Below are positions 8,593-44,179 of a DNA stretch of 64,000 nt, piece after piece. Under the pieces are notes generated by a model. It saw nothing but the letters and a program-made list of their open reading frames with translations, made no database searches and had not been told where the DNA came from. The stretch is taken from positions 68,260 to 132,259 of the forward strand of contig JBAYIY010000003.1 in the NCBI GenBank assembly GCA_041665365.1, in the 5' to 3' direction. This DNA comes from Patescibacteria group bacterium (GTDB taxonomy: Bacteria > Patescibacteriota > Patescibacteriia > UBA9570). Within the stretch, counting starts at the first letter, position 1, and each line of letters opens with the position of its first letter. The position numbers and the translations under genes were made by a program.

Positions 8593-9325
8593 GTGGTTTA
8601 TTTTTATACAATATGGCCAGCAAATTTTGGCTCACAATATATGGCACTTTTCCAGTTTCGGTGAAAAGCAGTAATTTATAAATTTTTTGAACGCCCCACC
8701 ACATGATTTGTCGCATGGTTTCTTGGATACCTCGACCTCTAGAAAATATTTGATAAACATCGACTTGAGCAAAACCATATTGTTGGCCAATCTGCATTAT
8801 GGTATTACGGGTAAAAGCCAATTCATGAGTGTAGTCACCATAGCGAACGCGGCCAAAAAAGGGTGATTCTCCATTTGGGACATGCACAATCAATTTTCCA
8901 TTTACGGCCAGAGCTTGTTGACAATATTGAAGTATGCGCACAACATCTGGCTTAGAAAAATGTTCTAATACGTCCCGTGCTATGATTAATTCAAATTGAG
9001 CAGTATTCTTTTCTAAGAAAGAAAATAGATCACCACAAACAATATTTTTTACTCCTAACTCTTCACCAATTTTAATTTGTTCCGGGCTAATATCAATACC
9101 ACTGGCTTCCGTATAACCTTTTTGTTGTAACCACCACACAATGCTACCATTACCACATCCAAGATCTAAGATTTTAGCAGTTTGATTTACGGGTAAAAAT
9201 CGACCCATTTCATGATTAAATGGATAAATCCGGTTTTGAAAATCAACCAACGAACCAGCCCCTTTTCGATGTGCCGTGTGGGTTGTGACGTAATTATTGT
9301 ACAGCTCTTTTTTATAATCAGACAT
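8585..9325 (-). CDS. Class I SAM-dependent methyltransferase
   Basis: Motif I reads ILDLGCGNGSI, with a downstream acidic motif IIARDVLEHF. Confidence 0.7.
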   Translation of the reverse strand: MSDYKKELYNNYVTTHTAHRKGAGSLVDFQNRIYPFNHEMGRFLPVNQTAKILDLGCGNGSIVWWLQQKGYTEASGIDISPEQIKIGEELGVKNIVCGDLFSFLEKNTAQFELIIARDVLEHFSKPDVVRILQYCQQALAVNGKLIVHVPNGESPFFGRVRYGDYTHELAFTRNTIMQIGQQYGFAQVDVYQIFSRGRGIQETMRQIMWWGVQKIYKLLLFTETGKVPYIVSQNLLAILYKNKPHG

Positions 9326-9399
9326 ATGTTATTAACCCGGGCGGTAAATAGTATCCATTAATTGTTCGGCTCGCACTATAGCAGTGTCTAATGATAAAA

Positions 9400-10827
9400 T
9401 CAAGCAGCCTGGTTAGGATGTATGATTTTTTTTAGTTCTTGAATAATCAGTCGTATGCTATTACGGTCTAACCAATATAGTATAATTAAATAGATAGAAC
9501 CATCAACCAGTAAACCACAAATTAGTCGGAACCAAAATAAACTTGGTATAAAATGAATAATTAGTAAAAAACCAAGACCAGCTAACACACTGGATCCGAA
9601 AGATGGCCATAAAGCAAGCATAATATCTTGCCAACGAATCGGCAGAAGCTTATGAATTAAAAAATACATTATAGTTAAACTAACGAGGTAGACAATTGTG
9701 ATCATCCAAGCTGCTCCCGATAGAGCAAAAAAATGAATTGCAATAGGTAAACTTATCGCAGTCGCTAAAGTAATTCCAATTGACCAATAAAGCAACCAAT
9801 TAAGTTTGTCAAACGCTTTGAATATTGGTCCTGCGGGAGATACTATCACTTGGACATAGGTTAATATTGAAAGGATTTGTAAAATTGGAATAGTTTTAAT
9901 CCATATATTACCCCAAACAGCCGGAACAATAATTGGGGCCGTTATGATAATAGTCATAAGAATAGGTGTAACAATTGTGTGGGTTACGCGAGTGGTTAAT
10001 AAATATGAGTTTACTACAGCTTTAAGATCAGTTTGAAGATTGGAAAATTTTGGAAATAAATATATACCAATTGCTCCAACAAACATAGTAATTGGTGTTA
10101 CGGTAAATTTGAATGCAAATGAATAAATTCCAAGAGTCACTGTACCAAGCATCAGGGAAATAAAAATTTTTTCTGTATTTTGTGCAAAAAATTTAATAAT
10201 GTTGAACACTAATAGACGCGAACTATAAGGCCACAATTCTTTTACGGCTACCATTGAAAATTCTTTCAGATTTGGTCTCCAATCAGAGACACCCCATAAT
10301 ACCAACGTATTTATGACTGAGAGGCAAACTGTCTGAATGACTAAACTCCAGACACCAAAACCAAATAACGCTAGGGTGATGCCGATGCCACCACTGATAA
10401 CAGTTGAAATAGTATCTCGAATTGCTAAAACACGAAAATGTAATTTTTTTTGAGCTAAAGCAATTTGAGTGAGAGACAATGTATTAATTATAAAACTGAG
10501 TGACAATATTTGAATTACTGGTTTTAAGAGTGGAGTCGAAAAATAATTTGCGGCAAAACCAGCGCTAACAATACCGATAATAGTAAGTATCATTCCTACT
10601 AGAACATTAACAACAAAAATAGAACTAAAATGACGGTTGGTGACATTTTGTCGTTGAATTAAAGCCGAACTGAAGCCGTTTTCAGTGAAAGAATCCAGAA
10701 AAGAGATCATTATCATGGCTGTGGCCAATACACCAAAATCCTTAGGGCTAAGTAACCAACTTAAAATCGCAAAAATTATAAAAGAAAGACCTTGTTTACT
10801 GATCACTTGCAGAATAGACCAAATCAT
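9400..10827 (-). CDS. Wzx-like oligosaccharide or polysaccharide flippase (MOP superfamily)
   Basis: The product is 475 aa with about 12-14 transmembrane helices, an architecture typical of Wzx/PST proteins. It sits in the glycan locus. Confidence 0.65.
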   Translation of the reverse strand: MIWSILQVISKQGLSFIIFAILSWLLSPKDFGVLATAMIMISFLDSFTENGFSSALIQRQNVTNRHFSSIFVVNVLVGMILTIIGIVSAGFAANYFSTPLLKPVIQILSLSFIINTLSLTQIALAQKKLHFRVLAIRDTISTVISGGIGITLALFGFGVWSLVIQTVCLSVINTLVLWGVSDWRPNLKEFSMVAVKELWPYSSRLLVFNIIKFFAQNTEKIFISLMLGTVTLGIYSFAFKFTVTPITMFVGAIGIYLFPKFSNLQTDLKAVVNSYLLTTRVTHTIVTPILMTIIITAPIIVPAVWGNIWIKTIPILQILSILTYVQVIVSPAGPIFKAFDKLNWLLYWSIGITLATAISLPIAIHFFALSGAAWMITIVYLVSLTIMYFLIHKLLPIRWQDIMLALWPSFGSSVLAGLGFLLIIHFIPSLFWFRLICGLLVDGSIYLIILYWLDRNSIRLIIQELKKIIHPNQAA

Positions 10828-10980
10828 GTGGCTAATGATAGCATTAGAATTTGGACTTGTCTTGATCGAAACCGCAGAAGTGTTATTGGACTAAGCACAA
10901 TATTCAGGAGTTGAATATTTTGACTAGCTGTGATATACCACATCACGTATTTATAGTTAATCAATTAGTTTGTTGTTTAC

Positions 10981-11808
10981 ATGAATATTTTAAAAAAATT
11001 TTATCGAGCTCTCGTGATATTGCACATTTGGACAATAAAACAATATCAAAAAAAAATTGTCACACCTTGTAAGCGTTTAAGGGCGTATTATAAATTTAGA
11101 TTTGTATTTCCTAAGCTTGGAAGCAGTCCCATAAAAGATTTAAATTTATATGAGGCAAAAGTATATTCTCAAAATGGAGAAGATGGAATAATCAAAGCAA
11201 TTTTTCAAAAAATCGGCACAACTAATAAATATGCGGTAGAAATTGGTGTTGAAGATGGCACTGAATGTAACACTCGTTATTTAATTCAAAAAGCTGGTTG
11301 GAAATCATTACAATTAGATGGTTCAGACAATAATTCACCCCAAATCAAACAGGAGTTTATTACAGCGGAAAACATTAATATTTTGTTAAAAAAATATGCT
11401 GTACCAACTGAGTTTGATTTACTATCAGTGGATATCGATTACAATACCTATTGGGTATGGAAGGCGATTGAGCAGTACTCACCTCGCGTTGTGATTGTAG
11501 AATATAACGCAGCCTTTCCACCAACCGAGAGTAAAGCAGTCGAATATGATCCAAATGGAGTGTGGGATAGTACTAATTATTTTGGGGCTAGTTTGTTAGC
11601 TTTTGTGAACCTTGGAAAATTAAAAAATTACACTTTAATTGCTTGTGATAATAGAGGAGTAAATGCTTTTTTTGTGCGCAATGATTTAGCCAATAATTTT
11701 GTTAGCAAAGACATTATTGAGATTTATAAAGCCCCCCAATATGGGCAAAAGGTTAAAGGTAAATATATTGGTAAGCCAGTCAGTAAAAAAAAGATGATGA
11801 CGGTATAA
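10981..11808 (+). CDS. Hypothetical protein, possibly methyltransferase-like
   Basis: It is soluble and lacks a clear motif. The stretch QNGEDGIIKAIFQKIG...EIGVEDG is only weakly reminiscent of FkbM-type methyltransferases. It heads the NeuB operon. Confidence 0.3.
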   Translation: MNILKKFYRALVILHIWTIKQYQKKIVTPCKRLRAYYKFRFVFPKLGSSPIKDLNLYEAKVYSQNGEDGIIKAIFQKIGTTNKYAVEIGVEDGTECNTRYLIQKAGWKSLQLDGSDNNSPQIKQEFITAENINILLKKYAVPTEFDLLSVDIDYNTYWVWKAIEQYSPRVVIVEYNAAFPPTESKAVEYDPNGVWDSTNYFGASLLAFVNLGKLKNYTLIACDNRGVNAFFVRNDLANNFVSKDIIEIYKAPQYGQKVKGKYIGKPVSKKKMMTV

Positions 11809-11843
11809 GTTGTTTTAATACTGTTAGGTGCTATAATGCGATC

Positions 11844-12887
11844 ATGAGAGAGCTACAAATCGGTCAAACAATCATTAATGATAACAGTGATTGTTTTGTT
11901 ATTGCTGAAATTGGGCATAATCATCAAGGTAATCTAGAAACCTGTAAGTCTATGTTTAAGGCCGCCAAAGAAGCAGGAGCAAGTGCTGTTAAAATTCAAA
12001 AGCGAGATAATAAATTTTTATACACAAAAGATTTTTATAACTCACCATATAATTCAGAAAATGCCTATGCTCCAACCTACGGTGAGCATCGTGATTTTTT
12101 AGAGTTTGGAGAAGCTGAATATCAAGAGCTAAAACGTTACGCCGCAGAATTGGATATTATTTTTTTCGCTACACCTTTTGATGTGCACAGTGTCGAGTTT
12201 ATGGAGAAGTTAGATACTCCGATGTATAAAACAGCCTCAGCCGAGCTAACCAATATTCCATTCTTAGAATATGTTGCCAAAAAAGGTAAGCCGATGATTA
12301 TTAGTACTGGAGCAGCTACGATGGAGGATGTTGAGCGCGCCTATAATGCTGTGACCGCGATAAATAAAAATGTTGCTTTATTACAATGCACGGCTACCTA
12401 CCCAACACCACCAGAAGTAATCAATTTACGTGTGTTAGAGACGTATCGGAAAAAATTTCCGGATGCAGTAGTTGGTTTATCAACTCATTTTAGTGGCATT
12501 GTCATGGGTCCGGTAATGTATACCTTAGGCGGTCGTATTATTGAACAACATTTCACCATTAACCGCGCCATGAAGGGGACGGATCAAGCTTTTTCATTGG
12601 AACCAGTCGGATTAAGCAAAATGATTCGTGATATGAAACGAACGCGCTTAGCCTTGGGTGATGGTAAAAAAGTATTATTGGATGCGGAAATTCCTGCTAG
12701 TATTAAGATGGCCAAAAAAATTGTGGCCGCTAAAAATTTACCGGCTGGTCATGTTCTAACTGAAGCTGATTTAGCTTTCAAATCTCCCGGTGATGGCTTA
12801 AAACCATACCATGCTCAAGAATTATATGGCAAGACTTTGAAAGTACCTTTGCAGGAAGATGAAGAATTGTCTCTCGATCATGTCTAA
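11844..12887 (+). CDS. neuB: NeuB-family nonulosonic acid synthase (sialic acid, pseudaminic/legionaminic acid or KDN-9-P synthase family)
   Basis: The N-terminus CFVIAEIGHNHQGNLETCKSMFKAAKEAGASAVKIQKR matches the NeuB TIM-barrel signature. A C-terminal SAF-like domain (LPAGHVLTEADLAFKSPGDGL) is present. Confidence 0.85.
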   Translation: MRELQIGQTIINDNSDCFVIAEIGHNHQGNLETCKSMFKAAKEAGASAVKIQKRDNKFLYTKDFYNSPYNSENAYAPTYGEHRDFLEFGEAEYQELKRYAAELDIIFFATPFDVHSVEFMEKLDTPMYKTASAELTNIPFLEYVAKKGKPMIISTGAATMEDVERAYNAVTAINKNVALLQCTATYPTPPEVINLRVLETYRKKFPDAVVGLSTHFSGIVMGPVMYTLGGRIIEQHFTINRAMKGTDQAFSLEPVGLSKMIRDMKRTRLALGDGKKVLLDAEIPASIKMAKKIVAAKNLPAGHVLTEADLAFKSPGDGLKPYHAQELYGKTLKVPLQEDEELSLDHV

Positions 12888-13383
12888 GGCATTACCACAG
12901 CTTGCAACTACTACCAAGACTAAATTAGTCGTGTTTGATTTCGACGGTGTGTTTACAGATAATACAGTTTGGACAGATCAACATGGCAATGAATCGGTGC
13001 GGTGCTGGCGCAGTGATGGGCTTGGCTTAGTAAAACTTAAAAATCTTGGAATAAAAATTTATGTTCTGTCCACCGAAGAAAATCCAGTTGTAGCAGCACG
13101 GTGCAAAAAATTGAAAATACCGTGTATACCTGGTGTGAATGATAAAAAAGCGGCTTTGCTTAAATTGATGACAGATCAGGGGGTATCATCTGACAATACA
13201 ATTTATGTTGGTAATGACATTAATGATGTCGAGTGTTTAACCTTAGTTGATTGCTCCATTGTCGTAGCTGATGCTTATCCGGCAGCACTTAAAGTGGCGA
13301 AATATCGAACCACTAAGCCAGGTGGTTATGGTGCAGTGAGAGAGATTTGTGATTGGATAAATAATAATTATGGAAAAAAATAA
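12880..13383 (+). CDS. KdsC-type HAD phosphatase (KDO-8-P or nonulosonate-9-P phosphatase family)
   Basis: HAD motif I (VVFDFDGVFTDN) and motif IV (GNDINDVE) are present. The 174-aa size is typical of KdsC or KDN-9-P phosphatase. The ATG at 12880 overlaps the NeuB stop. Confidence 0.7.
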   Translation: MSKALPQLATTTKTKLVVFDFDGVFTDNTVWTDQHGNESVRCWRSDGLGLVKLKNLGIKIYVLSTEENPVVAARCKKLKIPCIPGVNDKKAALLKLMTDQGVSSDNTIYVGNDINDVECLTLVDCSIVVADAYPAALKVAKYRTTKPGGYGAVREICDWINNNYGKK

Positions 13384-14119
13384 TATATTTTCATTAGTAG
13401 GTAAAGTGGCCGTTGTTACCGGAGCCAAAGGAAAATTAGGTCGAGTTTGGGTTGAAACTCTTAAGCAAGCCGGTGCTAAAGTGGCTGAGCTTGATTTACC
13501 TGAAGCTGATGTTACTAACAAAGCCTCCCTCGAGGTGGCTCGCCAAATGATTGAAGCCGATCTTGGTGTGGTAGATATTTTGATCAACAACGCTGGTATC
13601 GATCAACCACCTAACCAACCAACGAAAACATTTTTATTAGAAGATTTTTCTGGAGATATTTTTAAACAGGTGTTAGATGTTAACGTAGTAGGAGCATTTT
13701 ATTGTATGCAAGTTTTTGGTAAGAGTATGGTACAACAACAACATGGTTCCATTATTAATATTGGTTCTTTGTATGCTTCAGTTTCACCTGATGCGCGGTT
13801 TTATGATCACTTAAAAAATGATCCACCTTTTTTAAAGCCACCTGTCTATGGAGCGTCGAAAGCCGCTTTAGTTCAATTAACTAAATATTTTGCTACTCAT
13901 TGGGGTGATTACAATGTTCGGGTTAATACTTTGTCACCAGGTGGAATTGAGGGAGGGCAAGACAGTGAGTTTAAACGTAAATTTAATGAGCGTGTGCCGC
14001 TGGGTCGAATGGGTAGCACAACTGATCTGGTTGGACCGCTCCTTTTTCTTGCTTCAGATGCTTCTGGTTATATGACCGGCCAAGAATTGATTATCGACGG
14101 TGGCTTTACGGCTTGGTAG
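13370..14119 (+). CDS. SDR-family oxidoreductase
   Basis: The Rossmann motif VAVVTGAKGKLG and the catalytic Y...K motif (YGASKAAL) are present. Confidence 0.75.
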   Translation: MEKNNIFSLVGKVAVVTGAKGKLGRVWVETLKQAGAKVAELDLPEADVTNKASLEVARQMIEADLGVVDILINNAGIDQPPNQPTKTFLLEDFSGDIFKQVLDVNVVGAFYCMQVFGKSMVQQQHGSIINIGSLYASVSPDARFYDHLKNDPPFLKPPVYGASKAALVQLTKYFATHWGDYNVRVNTLSPGGIEGGQDSEFKRKFNERVPLGRMGSTTDLVGPLLFLASDASGYMTGQELIIDGGFTAW

Positions 14120-14142
14120 AAAATTGATACAGTAGAGCCCTT

Positions 14143-15582
14143 ATGGCGTACCCCAAGATGGTGCAACACTGGATCAATAACCAGATAGCTACCAGTACCA
14201 CTGGTCAATTTTATGATAAGTTAAATCCGGCCACAGGAGCATCATTAGCTCAGGTAACACGGGGTGGAGCCGTAGACGTAGCATTGGCCGTGCAGGCTGC
14301 TTTGGCAGCAACCAAACAGTGGCAGGAAACTAGTATTATGCAGCGCGCTGAGTTATTACGGGCGGTGGCTCAACTCATTCAACAGCGCAGTGCCGAAATT
14401 GCCGAGATTGTTAATTTGGAGACAGGTAAGTCGATAGTTGATGCGACCGGAGAAGCAAAAGCAGCTATGGAAATGGGGTTTTTTGTGGCCGGTGAAGGAC
14501 GCCGCTATTATGGTAAAACTACTACCAGTAGTATGCCGCACCGTACGGCTATGATTGTGCGCCAGCCAATTGGAGTATGTGGTTTAATTATTGCCGCCAA
14601 CACTCCATTGCCGAATGTGGCTTGGAAAGCATTTCCAGCCTTGCTGTGTGGTAACACTGTAGTACTAAAACCATCTGAGGATATTCCATATACAGCTATT
14701 TGGTTCGCTGAATTACTCAAAGAGGTAGGTATACCGGCTGGCGTGTTTAATGTGGTTCAAGGCTTTGGTACGGAAGTTGGCGTACCGCTTGTGGCAGATG
14801 AGCGTGTGAAATTAATTAGTTTCACTGGTTCGGTACCAGTTGGAAAACAAATCAACAAAATTGCCGGTGAACGCTTGGCAAAAGTTTGTTTAGAATTAGG
14901 CGGTAAAAACCCCTTTGTGGTTTGTGATGATGCCGATTTGGAAGCGGCGGCAGATTTTGCGGTGCAGTCAGCTTTTTCTAATGCTGGTCAACGGTGTGCC
15001 GCCGGTAGTCGTATTATCGTGTTTGCATCTGTTTATGATAAATTTAAAACTCTATTTCTCGAACAAGCTAAACGGTATAGCACTGGCCCAGTGATAAATG
15101 AGAAGCAGTTAAATAACATGGCGGCAGCGGTTGAACGGGCAGTAGAGGCTGGTGCTACGTTATTGTTGGGTGGGAAAAGATTAACCGATAGCGAACATGT
15201 TTCTGGATTTTATTATGCACCAACTATTTTAGAAGGAGCTAAACCAACTGATGCTATTTCTTGCGCAGAATTATTCGGACCGATTACTGTTTTATATCAA
15301 GTAAATAATTTTCAGGAAGCACTAGATTTAGCTAATAGCACTGAGTTTGCCTTAACGGCTGCCGTTCATACCAGCTCAATTCATCGCAGCCAAGAATTTC
15401 AAGATAAATGTGTGGCGGGTGTTATTTCAGTGAATGGGCCATCACATGGCAGCGAACCACATTTACCCTTTGGTGGAGAAAAGAATTCTGGCACTGGTTG
15501 GCGAGAAGCCGGTACTGAGGCGTTAGATGTCTATTCCGATTGGAAAACAGTTTATATTAAACATAATCCCAGTCATGTTTAG
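14143..15582 (+). CDS. NAD(P)-dependent aldehyde dehydrogenase family protein
   Basis: The Glu motif LELGGKNP and the Cys motif FSNAGQRCAAGSR are present. The 479-aa length fits the family. Confidence 0.8.
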   Translation: MAYPKMVQHWINNQIATSTTGQFYDKLNPATGASLAQVTRGGAVDVALAVQAALAATKQWQETSIMQRAELLRAVAQLIQQRSAEIAEIVNLETGKSIVDATGEAKAAMEMGFFVAGEGRRYYGKTTTSSMPHRTAMIVRQPIGVCGLIIAANTPLPNVAWKAFPALLCGNTVVLKPSEDIPYTAIWFAELLKEVGIPAGVFNVVQGFGTEVGVPLVADERVKLISFTGSVPVGKQINKIAGERLAKVCLELGGKNPFVVCDDADLEAAADFAVQSAFSNAGQRCAAGSRIIVFASVYDKFKTLFLEQAKRYSTGPVINEKQLNNMAAAVERAVEAGATLLLGGKRLTDSEHVSGFYYAPTILEGAKPTDAISCAELFGPITVLYQVNNFQEALDLANSTEFALTAAVHTSSIHRSQEFQDKCVAGVISVNGPSHGSEPHLPFGGEKNSGTGWREAGTEALDVYSDWKTVYIKHNPSHV

Positions 15583-16297
15583 TTGTGTTGCTCTCATTCC
15601 CGCTCGAGCTGGTTCAAAGCGCGTAGCAAATAAAAATGTTAAGTTGCTCAATGGACATCCTTTGTTGGCTTATACTATTGTTGCAGCTAAACAAGCTGGC
15701 ATATTTACTGATGTTATAGTGTCTACTGATAGTAAAGATATTGCAAAAATAGCAGAACAGTATGGGGCAACTGTATTTGGGCTACGTCCTGCTGAATTAG
15801 CAACGGATAACTCGCCTGATATAAAATGGGTGCAATATGTTTTAAAACAGTTAATGAAACCGACCGATGCTTTTGCCATACTACGTCCTACTAGCCCATT
15901 TCGGCAGGTCAATACCATTCAACGCGCTTGGCAAGAGTTTTCTACTAAACACGTTGATTCTATTCGAGCAGTAGAATTATGCAAACAACATCCCGCTAAA
16001 ATGTGGCGCGTAGTTGATGATCAGATGGAACCAATTATGAGTAATCCAGATTTAACCGCGACACCCTGGCATAGTTCACCCTATCAAACTTTGCCAAAAG
16101 TGTATGCGCAAAATGCCAGTTTAGAAATAGCTTGGTGTCGTATACCACTAGAACAAGGTACTATTTCTGGTAAGTTTATTGCACCATTTTTTACTACTGG
16201 TTATGATGGTTTTGATATTAATTTGCCAGAGGATTGGGTCGTGGCCGAGTATTTAATTAAACAACACTTAGTTACTTTACCAAATATAGTGCTATGA
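15575..16297 (+). CDS. neuA: NeuA/KdsB-family CMP-nonulosonate (acylneuraminate) cytidylyltransferase
   Basis: The motif VALIPARAGSKRVANKNVKLLNGHPLLAYTI is the cytidylyltransferase P-loop-like signature. The ATG at 15575 overlaps the aldehyde dehydrogenase stop by 8 nt. Confidence 0.8.
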   Translation: MFSCVALIPARAGSKRVANKNVKLLNGHPLLAYTIVAAKQAGIFTDVIVSTDSKDIAKIAEQYGATVFGLRPAELATDNSPDIKWVQYVLKQLMKPTDAFAILRPTSPFRQVNTIQRAWQEFSTKHVDSIRAVELCKQHPAKMWRVVDDQMEPIMSNPDLTATPWHSSPYQTLPKVYAQNASLEIAWCRIPLEQGTISGKFIAPFFTTGYDGFDINLPEDWVVAEYLIKQHLVTLPNIVL

Positions 16298-18135
16298 AAT
16301 TATCATTCGTGCCATTATCCGAAATTCAGCGTTTACGGCGAACTATTACTGACCCTGTAAAACAAGTTAGGGTGCTCGCTACAGTGTTTCGCATCAATAC
16401 ACTGTATATGATCGCCCAAGCTGGTTCTGGGCATATTGGTTCCAGTTTTAGTGCCATGGATATAGTAACGTGGTTGCATCTCAATGTGCTGGGAAAAGAC
16501 GATGTCTATTTTTCATCGAAAGGTCATGATGCTCCGGGGTTGTACTCTATTTTATTAGGTTTAGAAAAAATACCCTTCGAAAAAATTCATACCCTAAGAC
16601 GGTTAGGTGGTTTGCCCGGTCATCCTGATATTGTGAATACACCTTGTATAGTAACTAACACTGGTTCATTAGGTATGGGAATTGCCAAAGCCAGAGGTAT
16701 GGCTTTAGCTAGACGCTTAAACAAACGGCCAGGCAGATTTTTTGTGCTCACAGGGGATGGTGAATTACAAGAAGGACAGAATTGGGAATCTTTACAACCG
16801 ACTGCTAATGGGCATTATGGAGAAATTACCGTGATCGTGGATCATAATAAAATGCAATCGGATACTTGGGTAAAAAAAGTGAGTGATCTTGGTAATTTGG
16901 AAAAAAAGTTTGCGGCTTTTGGTTGGGAAGTAGCCAGAATTGATGGCCATAATTTGTTACAATTTTCTGAAACTTTAGAGCGATTTAATAATATCACTGA
17001 CAAACCTAAAGTTATTATTGCTGACACTATCAAGGGTAAAGGAGTAAGCTTCATGGAAGGCAACTCATTAGGCGAAGATGAACTGTATAAGTTTCATAGT
17101 GGTGCACCCAGTGCCGATAACTACGCTAAGGCTTTAACTGAATTACTAAAACAAGTGGAAGTGACAGATTTAGTTTTAGAACAACGTGAGGCTTTAGCAA
17201 AATATACCACCAGCTCTCAACCGCAGAAATTGATATCAGCCTATGGTGCTGAACTTAAAACTATTGGTGATGAACACGCAGAAGTTGTAGTGTTAGATGC
17301 AGATCTAATGTTAGACACCGGTTTGATTCCGTTTAAAGAAGCACATCCTGACCGTTTTGTTGAATGTGGCATTGCTGAACAAGATATGGTGTCTTTGGCC
17401 GGGGGCTTAGCTTTATCTGGCAAATTACCTATCGTGCATTCTTTTGCCTGTTTTTTATCAACTCGACCCAATGAACAGATTTATAATAATGCCACAGAAG
17501 AAACTAAAATTATTTACGCTGGTTCATTGGCTGGAATATTGCCAGCCGGACCAGGCCACTCGCACCAATCAGTGCGCGACATTTCTATATTAGGCTCCAT
17601 TCCCGGCTTAACATTAATTGCACCGAGTTGCGAACAAGAAGTGCGTTTAACTTTACGCTGGGCTGTAGAAAAAAATCCACTCAGTACTTATATTCGTTTA
17701 GAAAGTTTACCAATTGATTTACCATTTTCATTGCCGAAAAGTTATTCATTGCAAGTTGGCTTGGGTCAAACCATTTATTCCGGCCATGATATTGCCCTAG
17801 TAGGGTATGGTCCAACTCTGTTGAAACAAGCTTATTTAGCGGCTCAACAATTAGCCAAAGAAAATATTAGTGTGGCGGTATATGACTTTCCATGGCTAAA
17901 TAATATTAGTGATAAATTTATTACAGAGTTGTGTAAATATCAGACGGTGTTAACCTTGGATAATCATTATCTACAATTTAGCCAAGGTATGATGATTCGA
18001 GCGCATGTACCTCAAGCTGTTAGTCTTGGTCTGACTGACGTGCCGGTCTGTGGCCAAAATGATGAGGTGTTAACAAATTCTGGTTTAGACATCAGTAGTA
18101 TAATAAATGTCGTTAAAACACATAGTAAAAAATAA
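16294..18135 (+). CDS. Fused transketolase-family enzyme (thiamine-diphosphate binding N-half plus pyrimidine-binding C-half)
   Basis: The N-half shows SGHIGSSFSAMDIV and GDGELQEGQNWE, the thiamine-diphosphate GDG box. The C-half shows ECGIAEQDMVSLAGGLALSGKLP. The start overlaps as ATGA. Confidence 0.8.
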   Translation: MKLSFVPLSEIQRLRRTITDPVKQVRVLATVFRINTLYMIAQAGSGHIGSSFSAMDIVTWLHLNVLGKDDVYFSSKGHDAPGLYSILLGLEKIPFEKIHTLRRLGGLPGHPDIVNTPCIVTNTGSLGMGIAKARGMALARRLNKRPGRFFVLTGDGELQEGQNWESLQPTANGHYGEITVIVDHNKMQSDTWVKKVSDLGNLEKKFAAFGWEVARIDGHNLLQFSETLERFNNITDKPKVIIADTIKGKGVSFMEGNSLGEDELYKFHSGAPSADNYAKALTELLKQVEVTDLVLEQREALAKYTTSSQPQKLISAYGAELKTIGDEHAEVVVLDADLMLDTGLIPFKEAHPDRFVECGIAEQDMVSLAGGLALSGKLPIVHSFACFLSTRPNEQIYNNATEETKIIYAGSLAGILPAGPGHSHQSVRDISILGSIPGLTLIAPSCEQEVRLTLRWAVEKNPLSTYIRLESLPIDLPFSLPKSYSLQVGLGQTIYSGHDIALVGYGPTLLKQAYLAAQQLAKENISVAVYDFPWLNNISDKFITELCKYQTVLTLDNHYLQFSQGMMIRAHVPQAVSLGLTDVPVCGQNDEVLTNSGLDISSIINVVKTHSKK

Positions 18136-18137
18136 AT

Positions 18138-19796
18138 ATGCCATTATGGCGCCACATTTTAAGAGGTGGGATATTAGATAACATTTATAATTGGCGTCAT
18201 TTGAGTGCCGCTTTACAACAGTCATCTGCACAGGCTCAGACCAATCACTCTCCGCGGATATTACTAGCACCCAACGTGTACTGGGAACAGTTTATCAACA
18301 TGTATACATTATTGGCTGCGGCTTTGCGCTTGCGTGGTGCCCAAGTTGATGTGTTTTACGATGATATTCTTCCCGCCTGTGAAAAATGTACATACCATAA
18401 CAATGTGCATCATTTGGGGAGACATAAATTTGACCCAATTCGAATGCGTTGGATATGGAAACCGCTGGGCGTTAAATTATTACCTATTAGTCAGTTTTTA
18501 GATCAGGCGCAAATTAAGCAAGCAAAAAAACTTTCTAACGAAATACCTTTTTCGGAAATCGCAACAGTACAATTAGATAAAGTTAAAATCGGTGAGCATG
18601 CTTATGCTGGAGCGTTGCGGTATTTTGCGACAGGAACCTTAGATGGTCAGCCCAAGGCTGAACATGTTTTACGTCAATACTTATTAAGTGCCCTGTTAAT
18701 GAAATTTGCCACAGAGCGGTTGTTTAGTGAAAAACAGTACGATGTTGCCTGTTTTCATCATGGTATTTATGTACCCCAAGGTATTCTTGGAGAAGTGGCG
18801 CGTGCCAAGAAAATACGCGTAGTTAATTGGAATGTAGCCTATCGAGAAAAATGCTTTATTTTTTCTCATAATGATACCTATCACCATACATTATTAGATG
18901 AACCCACTAGTTGTTGGGAAAATATTTCTTGGACTGAAACTTTAGACAATAAAATTACGCAATATTTGGACAGTCGTCATACTGGCAGTAAAGATTGGAT
19001 TAGTTTCAATCGCTCACCGATAGAAAATACTAAAATAATTATTGATCAATTAAAAATTGATCCAAATAAACCAATCATTGTTTTATTAACCAATGTCATT
19101 TGGGATGCCCAGTTGCATTATAAAACCAACATTTATCCTAATATGATTGCTTGGGTTAATGATACCATTACATATTTTTCGAAACGGCCTGATTTACAAT
19201 TAGTTATTAGAATTCATCCGGCTGAAAAAAAGGGAACAATTCCATCACGGCAACCAATGTTAGCTGAAATAAACAAGGTTTTTCCTGTTCTACCAAAAAA
19301 TGTTGTGGTCATACCGCCAGATAGTTCGATTAGTACTTATGTAATTAGTAATTTGTGTAATGCTGCTATTATTTATGGTACTAAAACTGGCGTAGAGTTG
19401 GTGAGTAGCGGTATTCCAACCATTGTGGCTGGTGAGGCTTGGATTAAGCAAAAAGGTTTAACCATGGATCCGACAAGTGTTGCCGAGTATCATACGTTAT
19501 TAGATACATTACCCCTGTCCGGTAAACTTGACGTTGCTACAATAAAACGTGCGAAACAATATGCTTATCATTTTTTCTACCGGCGCATGATTCCAATTAA
19601 GTGTATTCAGTCTGGTAAGTTGATATTCTTTAAATTACATATCAACAGTTTGGGTGATTTGTTACCCGGAGCCGACCCTGGTTTAGATGTTATTTGTCGG
19701 GGGATTCTTACAGGAGATCCATTTATATATCCTGATGAAGAGATTAATGCTACAGCATCAGAAGGTCAGTCCACAGCCTGGCTAGACATGCGTTAA
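18138..19796 (+). CDS. Hypothetical protein; possibly a KpsC/KpsS- or TagF-like capsule/glycan transferase
   Basis: A C-terminal R-I-H-P motif is followed by a GT-B-like stretch (AIIYGTKTGVELVSSGIPTIVAG), which recalls CDP-glycerol or beta-Kdo transferase families. The match is weak. It sits last in the NeuB-NeuA operon. Confidence 0.3.
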   Translation: MPLWRHILRGGILDNIYNWRHLSAALQQSSAQAQTNHSPRILLAPNVYWEQFINMYTLLAAALRLRGAQVDVFYDDILPACEKCTYHNNVHHLGRHKFDPIRMRWIWKPLGVKLLPISQFLDQAQIKQAKKLSNEIPFSEIATVQLDKVKIGEHAYAGALRYFATGTLDGQPKAEHVLRQYLLSALLMKFATERLFSEKQYDVACFHHGIYVPQGILGEVARAKKIRVVNWNVAYREKCFIFSHNDTYHHTLLDEPTSCWENISWTETLDNKITQYLDSRHTGSKDWISFNRSPIENTKIIIDQLKIDPNKPIIVLLTNVIWDAQLHYKTNIYPNMIAWVNDTITYFSKRPDLQLVIRIHPAEKKGTIPSRQPMLAEINKVFPVLPKNVVVIPPDSSISTYVISNLCNAAIIYGTKTGVELVSSGIPTIVAGEAWIKQKGLTMDPTSVAEYHTLLDTLPLSGKLDVATIKRAKQYAYHFFYRRMIPIKCIQSGKLIFFKLHINSLGDLLPGADPGLDVICRGILTGDPFIYPDEEINATASEGQSTAWLDMR

Positions 19797-19822
19797 ATAA
19801 ACCTGTAATGTACTAAATTATT

Positions 19823-20638
19823 ATGAATAAAATCTATAAATTACTTTACCTCTTACGCGGTCGAAAACCATGGACATTAGGCTATGTACCATATAAAGAG
19901 GAAAAAATTGCCACTGCCTTGGCCGATGTAACTTTACTGGACAGGTTTGTTAATAGACAACCTTTACCGCCTGAGTTTGCTCAAAGATTGGATGAGCGTT
20001 TAGTCGAGTTTCCTTGGTTGATGTCTAGTTTGCCAAAAGAATCAGGAAAATTATTGGATGCCGGATCAACTATTAATCATTCGTACATTATCAACCAAAC
20101 AGTTTTGCAGAACAAAGATATAACAATAATGACATTAGCACCTGAAGATAAGAGTTTCTGGCAGAAACGAATTTCATATATCTACGGTGATTTACGCAAT
20201 GCTCCATTACGTGACAATTGGTTTGATAGTGTTACTTGTATTTCAACACTAGAACATGTTGGTATGGATAATTCCATTTACACGGCTGATAAACAATATC
20301 ATCAATCCGACACCACTTCTCATTTGAAAGTGATTGCTGAATTACAGCGCATGCTTAAGCCAGGAGGTAGATTATATTTAACTGTACCGTATGGTCTGTT
20401 TAAAGTAATGGGTTTTCAGCAAGTGTTTAATGCCGAAATGGTACAGAACGTTATCAAACAATTTGGTGGCAAAGTTATTGAGGAGACTTATTTTAAATAT
20501 ACAGTTGATGGTTGGCAATTAGCTCAAGCTGCAGACTGTGCTTCAATGGATTATTTTGATATCCATGTTACTAAACAATATGATGCCGATTATGCCGCCG
20601 CCGCTCGCGCCGTGGCTTGTTTAATCTTGGAAAAATAA
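19823..20638 (+). CDS. Putative SAM-dependent methyltransferase-like protein
   Basis: LLDAGSTIN resembles motif I, and ISTLEHVGMD and LKPGGRLYLTVP also resemble methyltransferase motifs. The match is weak. Confidence 0.4.
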   Translation: MNKIYKLLYLLRGRKPWTLGYVPYKEEKIATALADVTLLDRFVNRQPLPPEFAQRLDERLVEFPWLMSSLPKESGKLLDAGSTINHSYIINQTVLQNKDITIMTLAPEDKSFWQKRISYIYGDLRNAPLRDNWFDSVTCISTLEHVGMDNSIYTADKQYHQSDTTSHLKVIAELQRMLKPGGRLYLTVPYGLFKVMGFQQVFNAEMVQNVIKQFGGKVIEETYFKYTVDGWQLAQAADCASMDYFDIHVTKQYDADYAAAARAVACLILEK

Positions 20639-20749
20639 TGAAATTTATACAAACCTACTTATTTGGTCATCATTAAAAACGATCACATAATCACTAATAC
20701 TTGGCAGTTTGGTTTAAATAATTCGATTATTACTAAGAAGTAAAATAAA

Positions 20750-22744
20750 TTATTTTTCTGACTGAGTGATAATAAGCAATGCAACAGAAGCAGAATATAA
20801 TGCTGGATATATTAGAAGACGCGACCATGATACACTAATCATAGTTGATATATTTGGTTCTGTGCTGAATAAATAAGTTAGACTCATTCCGAAAATATAT
20901 ATTATTATGGGTATAATAATATATGTATGAGCCAACATACCCTTAATCCCAAATGGTTTTTTGTACATCAGTACAATTGGCATACTTAGCATTAATAACC
21001 AACCAGCCCGATCTTCATAACTTATGAAAGAAATATTTCGTAGTACTATATTATAGTAGAGCTCGAAGTGAATAATGATTTGATACAGATTAATTGGAGC
21101 ATACACCACACTGTGAACTCCTAAATAGTTTTTTTGTATTAGCCAAATTGCATATGGGATAGCTGCCAATCCAATGCTTAGAAACAATTTTTTTAAGGGT
21201 AATAGTTTTTTTTCAGCAAAGGTTAAAAGTAGAAATGGTGCAAAAAATAATACAATTAACAACAAGCCTTCTTGTTTTGAAATCAATATAATGCTTACCA
21301 ACATACTGAATAAATACCAAAAAATATTATGTTGTGTTTTATACCACAATATGCCGAGAATCATCAGTAATCCAAATAACGGCCAAAGTATTGTATCTGC
21401 CGCACTGGGTGTACCATGAACCGAAGGAATTATACTATAGAGTAGCCATATGGCAATTAGCCACCACAAACGATTAGGTGTCAAGGCTTTAATGGCTAAA
21501 GCCACGCTACTAACAAATATGATCTGTAAAAAAACACTAAATATTGCATAACTAGTCAAAAGTTGAGTTGTGTCTATTCCAGGGAAATACATTTGATCCT
21601 TTGAAATATGAAATACCCATAACCACAAGCTCAAGAAAATTGAAGGTCCAGGTGGATAATGTGTCAGTAAAGCAGTTTGCCCAATTTGTTTTGCAACTAA
21701 ATCCACTGGCCAGTAACCATAATTATATACAAACATTGATCCATAGATATAGCGTAAATTATCACCCATTGTTAAAAGTGAATTCAGATATCGTGGTAAA
21801 AAGGTAAGGATAACAGTTCCTAGAATTAATCCAGTTGTAATTACGTGTGATATTAACTTTTGAAAGTTAATATAAGTAATGGTAAATCTTTTTACATGTC
21901 TAATGCTAAATAAATATAGACTGATTGATAATATCCATAGAAACACAGGCAACCAAGAAAATATATCTATAAGTATTACACTAAATAAAACAGTAATAGG
22001 TAAAATAATCAGAAATGAAAGATATCCAGAAATAATAGTCACACATAAGCGCCAGTATTTAGTTAGGTTTGAAGTAATGTGCCAGGCTAACAAACTGCCG
22101 TTAACGATTATTCCAAATAGTATAGCTAAACGTAACCAGATTATTATATCAGGAAATTTTCTAGGCTCAGTGGCAATGTAATAGGAAAAAAAATTTGCAA
22201 ATGTGATTGGATTTACACTTTGAGCAGAATTTCCAATTCGATATTTAATACTTTCCCATATTTCATCACTTTCCACGAGAACAGTGCTAGATTGTAATTG
22301 TTGCAATAATTTAGTTTTTGTTGCAGTATCAACTAGTTCCCATGGAATCGTATCATTATCAAGACATCTTGATAATGTATCATTAATTTGTCTGCATGAC
22401 GATATATAAAAAAAATTACCATCTTCATCAACAGCATAGAACCTGCCAACTCCACTATTACTATCAATAGATATTTTGGCATTTTCCTTTAATATAAACC
22501 AAATATTATTATCTTCAGGATAGCTTGATGGAATATAACTAGTGATGTCCCATGGAATACTATAACTATTTTCAGATGTAATAAAAGTATAATTTTGTCC
22601 CAAACTAGGGTGGGGGTTAATTATAGACGGCATTATATCTTTCCATGATGATGGCGATTGTAAAGTTACTAAAACACAAACAGCAAAGGCCAAAAAAAGT
22701 GGAGCAATTATTAACCAAAAAACTAGATGAACAATCTTTATCAT
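20750..22744 (-). CDS. Large polytopic membrane protein with an extracytoplasmic N-terminal domain (glycan polymerase- or transferase-like?)
   Basis: The 664-aa product has a signal or anchor, then a ~170-aa soluble domain, then more than 12 transmembrane helices. Confidence 0.4.
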   Translation of the reverse strand: MIKIVHLVFWLIIAPLFLAFAVCVLVTLQSPSSWKDIMPSIINPHPSLGQNYTFITSENSYSIPWDITSYIPSSYPEDNNIWFILKENAKISIDSNSGVGRFYAVDEDGNFFYISSCRQINDTLSRCLDNDTIPWELVDTATKTKLLQQLQSSTVLVESDEIWESIKYRIGNSAQSVNPITFANFFSYYIATEPRKFPDIIIWLRLAILFGIIVNGSLLAWHITSNLTKYWRLCVTIISGYLSFLIILPITVLFSVILIDIFSWLPVFLWILSISLYLFSIRHVKRFTITYINFQKLISHVITTGLILGTVILTFLPRYLNSLLTMGDNLRYIYGSMFVYNYGYWPVDLVAKQIGQTALLTHYPPGPSIFLSLWLWVFHISKDQMYFPGIDTTQLLTSYAIFSVFLQIIFVSSVALAIKALTPNRLWWLIAIWLLYSIIPSVHGTPSAADTILWPLFGLLMILGILWYKTQHNIFWYLFSMLVSIILISKQEGLLLIVLFFAPFLLLTFAEKKLLPLKKLFLSIGLAAIPYAIWLIQKNYLGVHSVVYAPINLYQIIIHFELYYNIVLRNISFISYEDRAGWLLMLSMPIVLMYKKPFGIKGMLAHTYIIIPIIIYIFGMSLTYLFSTEPNISTMISVSWSRLLIYPALYSASVALLIITQSEK

Positions 22745-22841
22745 AATTTAGGCGTAGCATAACCTAACATTAGTAACCTTGTAAATAGCTGAAAAATTTT
22801 ACTAATATTATAATATAGTATATATTCTAGTGGAATGAAGT

Positions 22842-23813: not shown

Positions 23814-23846
23814 CAACTAAAGATCATTAGGTGTACAAGCACTAGT

Positions 23847-24128
23847 ATGACTTCAAAACGTATAGTAACTATCATTTTAATCTGCTATGTACTCGTATCG
23901 GCTGGATACATTAGTTATCGTCTCTGGCAAGATTTTGTTGATCATTACTCAACTCAAGCCTTTGCTCAAGGTAAAGCTGCCACCATCCAAGCTGTTATTG
24001 AACAAGCCAGTCCCACAACCTGTAAATCATTTACGGTTTATGACGTTGATCAACAAGTGCAATTGATTAATACCGCCTGTTTAACTAATCAAGCAGCTGA
24101 TCCATCAGCTCCAACCACTGGCCAATAA
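23847..24128 (+). CDS. Small secreted or membrane-anchored hypothetical protein
   Basis: The 93-aa product has an N-terminal hydrophobic helix. It lies immediately upstream of the 744-aa fibre-like protein. Confidence 0.3.
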   Translation: MTSKRIVTIILICYVLVSAGYISYRLWQDFVDHYSTQAFAQGKAATIQAVIEQASPTTCKSFTVYDVDQQVQLINTACLTNQAADPSAPTTGQ

Positions 24129-24132
24129 CCTT

Positions 24133-44178: not shown

Positions 44179-44179
44179 C

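Follow-up and report, generated by a model that had tools for sequence, protein, structure and literature searches.

The window analyzed here, a stretch of 64,000 nucleotides from a Patescibacteria group bacterium, raises the question of why genes for a sialic-acid-like sugar should be packed together with those for an SDR, an aldehyde dehydrogenase (ALDH) and a transketolase, and what sugar such a set would make. The original prediction had read the group as a nonulosonic-acid cassette, and all the genes that it named were found in place on the plus strand, each with the claimed domain. No paper describing the cassette was found in the literature. The block consists of the following genes:

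10981-11808, plus strand: orf275, a soluble protein and first gene of the block, of uncertain membership in the pathway
11844-12887, plus strand: NeuB-family PEP-aldose condensing synthase (PF03102, 247.5 bits; SAF, 36 bits)
12859-13383, plus strand: KdsC-like HAD phosphatase, overlapping the synthase gene by 29 nt
13370-14119, plus strand: classical SDR oxidoreductase (adh_short_C2, 146 bits)
14143-15582, plus strand: NAD(P)-dependent ALDH (PF00171, 478 bits)
15527-16297, plus strand: NeuA/PseF-like CMP-ulosonic acid synthetase (CTP_transf_3, PF02348, 77.3 bits)
16294-18135, plus strand: single-chain ThDP-dependent transketolase-like (TK-like) enzyme (Transketolase_N, Transket_pyr, Transketolase_C)
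18138-19796, plus strand: GT-B glycosyltransferase related to the KpsC/KpsS/WbbB beta-Kdo transferases, with KpsC as the nearest solved folds
19823-20638, plus strand: SAM-dependent methyltransferase, final gene of the block (Methyltransf_11, 35 bits)

The cassette genes are a real, tightly packed and conserved operon. All genes from the synthase to the glycosyltransferase lie on the plus strand, and the eight co-directional genes (11844-19796) overlap or are separated by at most 26 nt. Junctions from the synthase onward to the methyltransferase are -29, -14, +23, -56, -4, +2 and +26 nt; the true start of the NeuA-like gene is likely the ATG at 15575, from which its overlap with the ALDH gene would be 8 rather than 56 nt. 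Promoter-like and terminator-like motifs occur in the block at chance level only. Because of the gene overlaps, and of the conserved synteny described below, the SDR, ALDH and TK-like genes are not a separate operon, a possibility that had been raised at the outset. The unusual enzyme set was also borne out, since no aminotransferase, acetyltransferase or 2-epimerase gene was found between 10981 and 20638.

Conservation was surveyed in loci anchored on the 80 best relatives of the TK-like enzyme in species-representative genomes. Most of these loci keep the synteny NeuB-(phosphatase)-SDR-ALDH-NeuA-TK, and gene order is mostly identical across all 80; the syntenic loci come from Patescibacteria, Melainabacteria, Gemmatimonadota, Chloroflexota, Proteobacteria, Myxococcota, Planctomycetota and Chlorobium. 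Within the best 80 loci, TK was counted in 78, NeuA in 58 (where it is the commonest gene immediately upstream of TK), ALDH and SDR in 51 each, NeuB in 48, the KdsC-like phosphatase in 21, the glycosyltransferase in 20 and an alternative HAD (HAD2) in 11. The same order in dozens of genomes of unrelated phyla is far beyond chance, and the cassette is a conserved, horizontally spread unit. The orf275 gene ends 35 nt before the synthase gene; its product has no TM-like segment and no Pfam or NCBIfam match even at E=5. Homologues neighbor the cassette in L035, where the gene comes directly behind TK, and in L044, L047 and L074. Orthologues of the methyltransferase, which may O-methylate the sugar or glycan, lie 3' to the glycosyltransferase gene in L016, L022, L043, L065 and L067.

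The cassette occurs in several variants. ALDH is missing from L028, L031, L077 and L073; TK directly adjoins SDR, again with no ALDH, in L004, L007, L010 and L045; and in Moorena only NeuA, TK and a HAD are grouped. In the Giovannonibacteria loci L004, L010 and L017 the genes behind the SDR-TK pair are an extended SDR, a NeuB homologue and members of the NeuC cluster. Two NeuC genes in L017, the one such locus scanned, scored 393 and 362 bits against a cutoff of 235.9, and the hexose in L017 therefore comes from NeuC. A Streptomyces plasmid locus, L081, reads NeuB-SDR-TK-RmlD-like-HAD-class III aminotransferase; the signature residues are identical, and a class III (omega-type) aminotransferase stands in place of ALDH, which fits a common aldehyde intermediate that is either oxidized or transaminated. 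Rhizobium and Sinorhizobium plasmids yielded only split transketolases of at most 36% identity and not the TK-like enzyme, which counts against the reading proposed below.

The synthase belongs to the NeuB family but falls below the NCBIfam cutoffs of both TIGR03569 (280.6 bits; cutoff 399.65) and PseI (241.8 bits; cutoff 340.25). Its scores with SpsE, NmNeuB and CjPseI are all near 150 bits, so that it is no closer to one than to another, and in a neighbor-joining tree it forms a clade of its own apart from NeuB, PseI and SpsE. The clustering with ordinary synthases that would have counted against the original prediction was thus not seen among those compared. At the positions of NmNeuB R314 and F288 the synthase has S and K, respectively. 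The essential Arg314 is absent from the whole clade, most members have E134D, and R54, R83, K288 and K291 are new basic residues invariant in the cassette clade. For the neighboring phosphatase the best NCBIfam match is KdsC, at 102.6 bits, followed by KDN-9-P phosphatase at 94.5 bits; both stay below their cutoffs. The enzyme is presumed to dephosphorylate the ulosonate at its omega-phosphate; where it is replaced, the substitute is HAD2, c27 in CPR loci or another HAD in Streptomyces. A co-conserved phosphatase of one kind or another, beside a synthase with no Arg314 and mostly E134D, agrees with the phosphorylated route that had been predicted and makes that route likely for the cassette.

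The set resembles the Kdn pathway of Bacteroides thetaiotaomicron (KDN-9-P synthase, KDN-9-P phosphatase and CMP-Kdn synthetase) and its animal counterpart, NANS/NANP, in having a NeuB-family synthase, a small KdsC-type HAD phosphatase, a CMP-transferase and no amino-sugar genes. The loss of Arg314 together with E134D is likewise reported for eukaryotic phospho-substrate synthases (NanS) (PMC8208679). However, the cassette phosphatase scores 94.5 bits against a KDN-9-P phosphatase cutoff of 180, and the known Kdn and NANS/NANP pathways have no SDR, ALDH or ThDP enzyme.

The TK-like enzyme is below every NCBIfam cutoff for transketolase and DXS, and its closest structures are of human TKT (181 bits). 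We compared 78 full-length relatives with human TKT, using a reference sequence checked only against the HMMER alignment. Human TKT residues H37, H77, H110, D155, N185, H258 and E366 are kept in 78/78, but in all 78 the canonical phosphate-binding Arg, Ser, His and Arg have been replaced, as has the Asp that recognizes the acceptor C2-OH: S345 by D (77/78), H416 by L (77/78), D424 by P (78/78) and R474 by S, N or T, while R318 is absent. The pocket gains acidic residues (D79, D112, D190 and D341), and R428, H422 and K186 are new invariant basic or His residues. This comparison indicates that ThDP chemistry has been kept and the sugar-phosphate site lost. The protein is like transketolase (EC 2.2.1.1, in its human-type or split short form) in its three domains, ThDP, Mg and catalytic His and Glu; it is unlike it in the phosphate ligands and stereo-reading Asp, and in always lying within a ulosonic-acid cassette. 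Because the phosphate ligands are lost, and because of the NeuC context in CPR loci and the aminotransferase swap in Streptomyces, it looks like a tailoring enzyme that acts after the synthase, most likely remodeling the finished sugar rather than a precursor.

The SDR and ALDH have their nearest characterized relatives among sugar-acid enzymes. The best NCBIfam matches of the SDR are D-mannonate oxidoreductase (UxuB) and gluconate 5-dehydrogenase, with KduD lower, and its PDB neighbors include the gluconate 5-dehydrogenases 4z9x and 1vl8; those of the ALDH are alpha-ketoglutaric semialdehyde dehydrogenase (388 bits) and 2,5-dioxovalerate dehydrogenase (373 bits). Unlike those hexuronate and sugar-acid catabolic enzymes, both cassette proteins score far below the equivalog cutoffs and lie in a biosynthetic glycan operon. 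Dehydrogenation of a sugar acid at its penultimate carbon is proposed for the SDR, and oxidation of a terminal aldehyde to a carboxylate for the ALDH; omega-1 dehydrogenation of sugar acids and oxidation of 2-keto-3-deoxy acid omega-aldehydes, the chemistries of the respective nearest families, support these two steps. The NeuA-like protein scored 129.8 bits with PseF (cutoff 205.7) and weakly with the NCBIfam KdsB models.

Taken as a whole, we propose that the block from 10981 to 20638 is a single operon within a Wzx-dependent surface-glycan locus, and that it makes, activates and transfers an undescribed non-amino, sialic-acid-like (3-deoxy-2-ulosonic) sugar by way of truncation; this joint reading is tentative, with a probability of about 0.4. 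The synthase would join PEP to a hexose 6-phosphate in the manner of Kdn-9-P synthesis, and the KdsC-like phosphatase would remove the terminal phosphate. The SDR would then oxidize the penultimate carbon (C8-OH) to leave a HOCH2-C(=O)-CHOH ketol terminus, a reaction like that of the mannonate, gluconate-5 and KDG-5 dehydrogenases with their sugar acids. Cleavage between C7 and C8 by the TK-like enzyme would remove a two-carbon ketol unit and leave a C7 aldehyde, which the ALDH would convert to a carboxylate. The product would be a 3-deoxy-hept-2-ulosaric acid, a Dha-type 'truncated Kdn' to which no stereochemistry is assigned. The NeuA-like enzyme would form the CMP sugar, the KpsC-like glycosyltransferase would transfer it, and the methyltransferase might decorate it; the order of the steps from the SDR onward relative to CMP activation is left free.

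The truncation step is drawn from family resemblances, all with scores below curated cutoffs, and some observations speak against it. A ping-pong transketolase requires a C2 acceptor, and none is evident; the acidic gains in the pocket are unexpected for a dicarboxylate-bound substrate; the ALDH-less variants and the reduced Moorena group lack part of the route; and, on stereochemical reasoning, common hexose phosphates would give a Dha stereoisomer and not Dha. Tailoring at the tail end of a finished 3-deoxy-ulosonic acid via an aldehyde has a parallel in Shewanella Kdo8N, where KdnB, a dehydrogenase, oxidizes the Kdo C8-OH directly to the omega-aldehyde and KdnA transaminates it; the aminotransferase at the place of ALDH in L081 adds to the likeness, but the cassette has an SDR for the iron alcohol dehydrogenase, an ALDH for the transaminase and an obligatory ThDP enzyme to which nothing in the Kdo8N pathway corresponds. 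A similar but acid-ended route would need no truncation: after dephosphorylation the SDR would act on the terminal CH2OH, and the ALDH would carry the resulting aldehyde on to a carboxylate, giving an 8- or 9-carbon ulosaric acid, with the TK-like enzyme adding a C2 branch, for example, or supplying or recycling a precursor. The Streptomyces swap fits an omega-aldehyde made directly by a dehydrogenase, and SDR adjoins ALDH in most loci. Nevertheless, the most conserved partner, in every locus, would be left with no function; it often sits directly beside SDR where ALDH is lacking, and secondary alcohols are the substrates of classical SDRs and of the nearest families of this one, so that we regard this route as unlikely.

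The role first predicted for the transketolase, upstream of the synthase, was to supply an unusual aldose (phosphate) for condensation with PEP, so that the resulting ulosonic acid would be a new one of 8 or 9 carbons. Transketolases interconvert sugar phosphates, and the new R428, H422 and K186 might bind an anionic group elsewhere; R428 and K186 might conceivably provide a binding site for phosphate or carboxylate at a new position, which weighs against truncation. Set against this are the replacement of all four phosphate ligands and the Asp throughout the family, the CPR SDR-TK pair beside NeuC-cluster genes (above cutoff in L017, the locus scanned) that already give a hexose with no transketolase, the Streptomyces swap, which points to an aldehyde after SDR/TK, and the lack of any role for SDR and ALDH; such a precursor role is quite improbable. 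Slightly less probable again is a chain extension in which the SDR introduces an aldehyde or ketone group into the ulosonic acid and the TK-like enzyme adds a C2 ketol to it, from hydroxypyruvate or a ketose for instance, to give a C10-C11 or branched acid. The invariant His110, which we take to be a ligand of the donor C1-OH in human TKT, implies that ketol-transfer chemistry is retained, and a precedent comes from antibiotic pathways, where PDH-E1-like ThDP enzymes attach C2 branches onto keto-sugars. Extended-backbone CMP-ulosonic acids of unknown genetics, detected in Magnetospirillum, are another, but the difference there is a single carbon instead of two, and those sugars are nitrogen-containing (bioRxiv 10.64898/2026.04.20.719630). 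Chain extension would also leave the ALDH and the Streptomyces aminotransferase with no aldehyde substrate. Finally, an ordinary Kdn or sialic-acid cluster might simply lie beside a housekeeping pentose-phosphate transketolase and a generic SDR and ALDH. Relatives of the TK-like enzyme are named only 'transketolase' in databases, and Patescibacteria use short transketolases, but synteny across many phyla, the gene overlaps, the clade-wide TK signature and the distinct NeuB clade contradict this arrangement and make it barely credible.

The glycosyltransferase is presumed to transfer the CMP-activated product. It is a 552-aa protein with extra elements, related by fold to the retaining beta-Kdo transferases KpsC/KpsS (GT107) and WbbB (GT99) at 11-13% sequence identity; its PF05159 score is below threshold, and the catalytic QxxxKD motif of KpsC was not identified in it. 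This relationship supports the KpsS-like last gene of the original prediction. A cassette for the synthesis, activation and transfer of a ulosonic acid, within a Wzx-type glycan locus, is thus upheld, but under the truncation pathway proposed here its product may have fewer than the 8 or 9 carbons first expected.

Nine co-directional open reading frames on the + strand fill positions 10981-20638 of the window and form the cassette considered here. The gene inventory originally predicted for it was recovered in full by ORF, Pfam and NCBIfam analysis.

Genes of the cassette (assignments from Pfam and NCBIfam)
10981-11808, +, unknown protein, no family assigned
11844-12887, +, NeuB-family synthase with a SAF domain
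12859-13383, +, small HAD phosphatase, top models KdsC (102.6 bits) and KDN-9-P phosphatase (94.5 bits)
13370-14119, +, classical short-chain dehydrogenase (SDR)
14143-15582, +, aldehyde dehydrogenase (ALDH)
15527-16297, +, CTP_transf_3 cytidylyltransferase, closest to PseF (NeuA)
16294-18135, +, single-chain protein with all three transketolase domains (TK*)
18138-19796, +, 552-aa protein without a Pfam match
19823-20638, +, methyltransferase

The gene junctions, 5' to 3', are +35, -29, -14, +23, -56, -4, +2 and +26 nt; the cytidylyltransferase more likely starts at the ATG at 15575, which would make its junction -8 instead of -56 nt. A scan of positions 9000-24500 for promoter- and terminator-like motifs gave counts at the level of shuffled sequences and was uninformative. 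With such tight junctions and motif counts at shuffle level, there is no sign of a transcription unit internal to the cassette. As predicted, genes for a NeuC-type 2-epimerase, an aminotransferase or an N-acetyltransferase were found neither within 10981-20638 nor in the enclosing glycan-assembly locus (1-24000). This locus includes GT2 and GT4 glycosyltransferases and a methyltransferase, together with the following genes.

Further genes of the glycan locus
9-1649, +, Pfam-less protein with 11-12 TM-like segments
3599-5563, +, Pfam-less protein with 11-12 TM-like segments
9400-10827, -, Wzx-type flippase
20750-22744, -, Pfam-less protein with 11-12 TM-like segments
22842-23813, GDP-mannose-dehydratase-like gene

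Possible roles for the three multi-TM proteins within the glycan locus are those of a Wzy-like polymerase, a ligase or a GT-C enzyme. For orf275, orf546, orf654, orf664 and orf744 there was no Pfam match even at E=5. Housekeeping genes (S6, SSB, EF-P, pyruvate kinase and PPDK) follow the glycan locus. Elsewhere in the window, surface proteins are predicted, two of them giant (2798 and 1922 aa) and the others smaller, at 35902-44298 (-), 44180-45523 (-), 47698-48603 (+) and 49905-55673 (+), with cohesin, dockerin, Big_13/Big_6/Big_9, DUF11, NosD-like and CarboxypepD_reg domains; the GC content of this region, 0.46-0.50, is above that of the glycan locus. The sole tRNA of the window is tRNA-Ser(GGA), at 55945-56033 (-).

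Species-representative genomes were scanned with the window TK*, which yielded at least 587 relatives, and the best 80 loci (labeled with L numbers) were kept. The window proteins were searched against them by tblastn, and their ORFs were clustered all against all. Within these best 80 of at least 587, TK* loci occur in Patescibacteria (Giovannoni-, Yanofsky-, Sungii- and Saccharibacteria), Melainabacteria/Vampirovibrionia, Gemmatimonadales, Chloroflexaceae, Alpha-, Beta- and Gammaproteobacteria, Myxococcota, Planctomycetota, Acidobacteriota and Thermoleophilia, as well as in Chlorobium sp. KB01, Desulfosediminicola flagellatus, Ciceribacter sichuanensis and Moorena. Among the 80 loci, many of which are truncated contigs, TK* has NeuA beside it in 58, ALDH in 51, SDR in 51, NeuB in 48, KdsC in 21 and the 552-aa protein in 20; in 11 of the 80 a second HAD type (HAD2) lies immediately after TK* where KdsC is absent. 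In loci with at least 6 kb on either side of TK*, the combination NeuB + SDR + ALDH + NeuA, with or without a phosphatase, dominates, and the commonest gene order is NeuB-(KdsC)-SDR-ALDH-NeuA-TK-(GT). The conserved core of the 80 loci has no aminotransferase, acetyltransferase or epimerase; DegT-type aminotransferases are found in only 12 of them, outside the core. This conserved synteny rules out that the transketolase, SDR and ALDH genes make up a separate, unrelated operon, an outcome that the original prediction had named as contrary to it.

Several neighbors of the core vary among loci. The first operon gene of the window encodes a 275-aa soluble protein without a family match (10981-11808, +), and its homologs adjoin the cassette in L035, L044, L047 and L074. 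Two unassigned families, c8 (about 460 aa, 14 of 80 loci) and c19 (about 445-470 aa, 5 loci), recur beside the cassette, with proteins of these types directly after TK* in, for example, L007 and L075; possibly they serve as alternative CMP-sugar transferases. In Thermoleophilia/Solirubrobacterales (L056, L044, L074) the order is NeuB*-TK*-c24, where NeuB* is the cassette-linked synthase clade and c24 is a protein of about 306-326 aa that follows TK*; a classical SDR was not detected in L056, a 9-kb contig. In Moorena (L040, L051, L053) only NeuA, TK* and HAD2 are clustered, among unrelated genes (polyphosphate-kinase-like, repeat proteins); no NeuB, SDR or ALDH lies within 10 kb, and the triad gave no functional clue. 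An NCBI protein from a 'Patescibacteria' MAG matches the window TK* at 100% identity, and the next-closest relative (79%) is in L001, a 13-kb contig binned as Gammaproteobacteria. GC content is 0.39-0.44 in the cassette region 12001-18000 and 0.32-0.36 in the flanking glycan genes; together with the L001 relative, this suggests horizontal transfer of the cassette or mis-binning.

The window synthase exceeds the gathering scores of PF03102 (247.5 bits) and the SAF domain PF08666 (36 bits), but falls below the cutoffs of the N-acetylneuraminate synthase equivalog TIGR03569 (280.6 vs 399.65) and of PseI TIGR03586 (241.8 vs 340.25). It scores about 150 bits against each of B. subtilis SpsE, N. meningitidis NeuB and C. 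jejuni PseI. In a neighbor-joining tree without bootstrap, cassette-linked synthases form their own clade with three sub-types, apart from these three references and from the non-cassette NeuB paralogs of the same loci, so that with respect to these references the predicted separation from ordinary synthases held. PMC8208679 describes Arg314 of N. meningitidis NeuB as the sole catalytic residue conserved in the SAF domain, and as essential (citing Joseph 2013). It is kept in the reference synthases and the non-cassette paralogs, but is Ser in the window protein and in 27 of 30 members of the main cassette clade ('KSP' vs 'KRP'). Phe288 is replaced by Lys in all cassette synthase types, and R54, R83 and K291 are further invariant basic residues. 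E134D and the loss of R314 are both reported for eukaryotic NanS, an enzyme that acts on 6-phosphorylated substrates (PMC8208679). The cassette clade has the same loss of R314 and mostly E134D (29 of 30 in the main clade), whereas the window protein itself keeps Glu134 and has only the R314 loss.

The phosphatase gene overlaps that of the synthase. The protein falls under the cutoffs of the KdsC equivalog (102.6 vs 208), KDN-9-P phosphatase (94.5 vs 180) and TIGR01670 (86.6 vs 106.95); by these scores it is related to both KdsC and KDN-9-P phosphatase and assignable to neither. A phosphatase is co-conserved near the synthase, whether KdsC, HAD2, a PGP-like HAD (CPR loci) or a HAD (Streptomyces). 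The nearby phosphatase, the loss of R314, E134D in the clade and the new basic residues make the phosphorylated route that had been proposed a likely one.

Among solved structures, TK* is nearest to human transketolase (about 181 bits) and to a split-chain transketolase, and it is below every NCBIfam transketolase and DXS cutoff (best transketolase model 345.5 vs 488; DXS TIGR00204 164.3 vs 465.95). We aligned the 78 full-length cassette-linked sequences to human transketolase, whose reference sequence was checked only against the HMMER alignment. His37, His77, His110, Asp155, Asn185, His258 and Glu366, which comprise ThDP/Mg residues and the catalytic His and Glu, are invariant in 78 of 78 sequences. 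The positions that, according to established structural work on transketolases, are ligands of the substrate phosphate are all replaced: Ser345 is Asp in 77 of 78, His416 is Leu in 77 of 78, Arg474 is Ser, Asn or Thr, and Arg318 is a gap or Ile. Asp424, which in transketolases binds a substrate hydroxyl, is Pro in 78 of 78. Polar residues invariant and specific to TK* (D79, D112, K186, D190, H422 and R428) lie near the replaced positions. Since the catalytic and ThDP residues are kept and the phosphate ligands replaced, TK* does not appear to be a sugar-phosphate transketolase; as judged from these residues it would retain ketol-transfer chemistry on a different, probably phosphate-free substrate. 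Relatives are named 'transketolase', but synteny and active-site residues led us to reject a housekeeping transketolase, and the related reading, that housekeeping genes lie together here by coincidence, is very improbable given the conserved synteny and the clade-specific residues. A DXS-like pyruvate decarboxylase was judged less likely, in view of the low DXS score and the invariant His110, which in transketolases is the ligand of the donor C1-OH.

The place of TK* in the pathway is indicated by loci of two kinds. In Giovannonibacteria L004, L010 and L017, SDR-TK* is followed by an extended SDR, a NeuB homolog with Arg314 and NeuC-cluster genes. L017, the only locus scanned against NCBIfam, has two NeuC genes (393 and 362 bits, cutoff 235.9), with NeuA and ALDH following. 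Because NeuC provides the hexose in loci of this type, TK* is not needed to supply it, and SDR-TK*(-ALDH) behaves as a portable tailoring module. NeuC-cluster genes are present in L004, L010, L017 and L045 (NCBIfam-confirmed in L017 only); in the CPR loci L004, L010, L017, L007 and L045, SDR-TK* adjoins NeuB paralogs, PGP-like HADs and an NAD-binding oxidoreductase (cluster c53). In some CPR loci NeuB is present two or three times and NeuA twice, a sign that two nonulosonic acid pathways may run in parallel.

A protein search of PLSDB gave one true TK* relative only, on the linear plasmid NZ_CP108509 of Streptomyces sp. NBC_01237 (L081, 4562-18990), in the order NeuB*-SDR-TK*-RmlD-like-HAD-class III aminotransferase. 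Its TK* and NeuB* have the same signature residues as the cassette, and there is no ALDH and no NeuA. The locus looks like a natural-product cluster with the same core chemistry and without CMP activation, and replacement of ALDH by an omega-type transaminase fits an aldehyde intermediate from SDR/TK*. Further neighbors are HmaS/HppD-like, FMN-dehydrogenase (Hmo-like) and class I/II aminotransferase genes and a LuxR/AAA regulator. The original prediction had TK* building a sugar-phosphate acceptor upstream of the synthase. This was not borne out and is now improbable: the phosphate site is lost while the pathway has a phosphatase, NeuC supplies the hexose in L017, and an aminotransferase takes the place of ALDH in L081. 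These same points place TK* after the synthase.

The nearest characterized families of the SDR are D-mannonate oxidoreductase and gluconate 5-dehydrogenase, with KduD lower in the list. These enzymes oxidize the carbon beside the terminal CH2OH of a sugar acid, and an oxidized penultimate carbon gives the HOCH2-CO-CHOH ketol that transketolases cleave. The ALDH is nearest to 2,5-dioxovalerate / alpha-ketoglutaric semialdehyde dehydrogenases, which oxidize the terminal aldehyde of a 2-keto-3-deoxy acid; it scores 388.1 against the NF042993 cutoff of 770, and its membership holds solely at superfamily level (PF00171, 478 bits). The NeuA-like protein is above threshold for PF02348 (CTP_transf_3, 77.3 bits), below that for PseF (129.8 against 205.7), and far under the cutoffs of KdsB models; it is a member of the family with no specificity assigned.

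The 552-aa protein belongs to a family of more than 4,000 members, a few with faint PF05159 matches and some named 'capsule biosynthesis protein' at NCBI. The window protein itself is below the PF05159 (GT107 KpsC/KpsS) threshold (15.1 bits vs 20). An AF2 model built from 28 homologs (pLDDT 87.7, pTM 0.88) has a GT-B fold, with the best Foldseek TM-scores to KpsC, and the homologs share an invariant His360-Pro361 that resembles the HP motif of CMP-sugar GT-B enzymes. The QxxxKD motif of GT107 enzymes, with its catalytic Asp nucleophile, was not located in the protein. A GT-B fold nearest KpsC/WbbB and an HP motif, as in GT107/GT99 beta-Kdo transferases, agree with the predicted Kps-like transferase, and the modeled fold and motif are consistent with a CMP-ulosonic acid donor.

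We estimate at about 0.8 the probability that the cassette is a conserved one whose product is a new CMP-activated ulosonic acid, with SDR, TK* and ALDH as tailoring enzymes. A seven-step scheme can be drawn that uses each cassette enzyme exactly once. NeuB* would make a Kdn-like nonulosonate 9-phosphate, the phosphatase would strip the phosphate, the SDR would oxidize C8, TK* would split C7-C8, ALDH would turn the C7 aldehyde into a carboxylate, NeuA would form the CMP derivative, and the KpsC-like glycosyltransferase would transfer the activated sugar. This would yield a 3-deoxy-hept-2-ulosaric acid, and Dha is a sugar of that class. We give the truncation mechanism itself, proposed from sequence, somewhat less than an even chance; that the cassette is the first known route to a CMP-activated sugar of the Dha class, by way of a truncated Kdn-like side chain, is a tentative and rather doubtful proposal. 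The weak points of the scheme are that all supporting family matches are under curated cutoffs, that the TK* pocket is acid-rich and that ALDH is absent from some loci; by our reasoning, common hexose phosphates would also lead to a stereochemistry unlike that of D-lyxo Dha. Other uses of the same enzymes are terminal oxidation without truncation, with TK* in a separate role, which we consider unlikely, and C2 extension or branching, to which we assign only a slim chance.

Plant cell-wall reviews still list as unknown how the Dha of rhamnogalacturonan-II is made and in which activated form it is used (PMC3355719; PMC12168206). Dha is also reported in Rhizobiaceae LPS cores (Russa 1991, as cited in PMC5713287). 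The PLSDB matches in Rhizobium and Sinorhizobium are split transketolases of at most 36% identity, and thus give no link to the Rhizobiaceae reported with Dha. Higher-carbon CMP-ulosonic acids are described in Magnetospirillum in the SugarBase preprint; we did not connect them to the cassette, since they contain nitrogen, differ by one carbon and have no genes assigned. As a type of system, nucleotide-sugar biosynthesis plus transfer is familiar; what is uncharacterized is the ThDP-dependent tailoring module, the glycosyltransferase family and the NeuB* clade. We know of no ThDP enzyme in the routes to Neu5Ac, Leg, Pse, Kdn, Kdo or Kdo8N.

The cassette defines a module of six to eight genes that hundreds of species-level genomes from many phyla carry, and for which we found no published description in full-text literature that covered a minority of subscription journals. 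A large clade labeled 'transketolase' is very unlikely to be a pentose-phosphate enzyme, which matters for metabolic reconstructions of CPR and uncultured bacteria. The analysis also provides a mass-spectrometry-testable hypothesis for the making of seven-carbon ulosaric acids such as Dha, and this is directly testable because there are cultured carriers (Desulfosediminicola flagellatus IMCC35005, Ciceribacter sichuanensis S101, Chlorobium sp. KB01 and Streptomyces sp. NBC_01237). Surface glycans of bacteria carry nonulosonic and other ulosonic acids as caps, and these sugars govern host, phage and immune recognition. If the scheme is true, Dha-type sugars would be widespread in environmental bacteria, CPR included.
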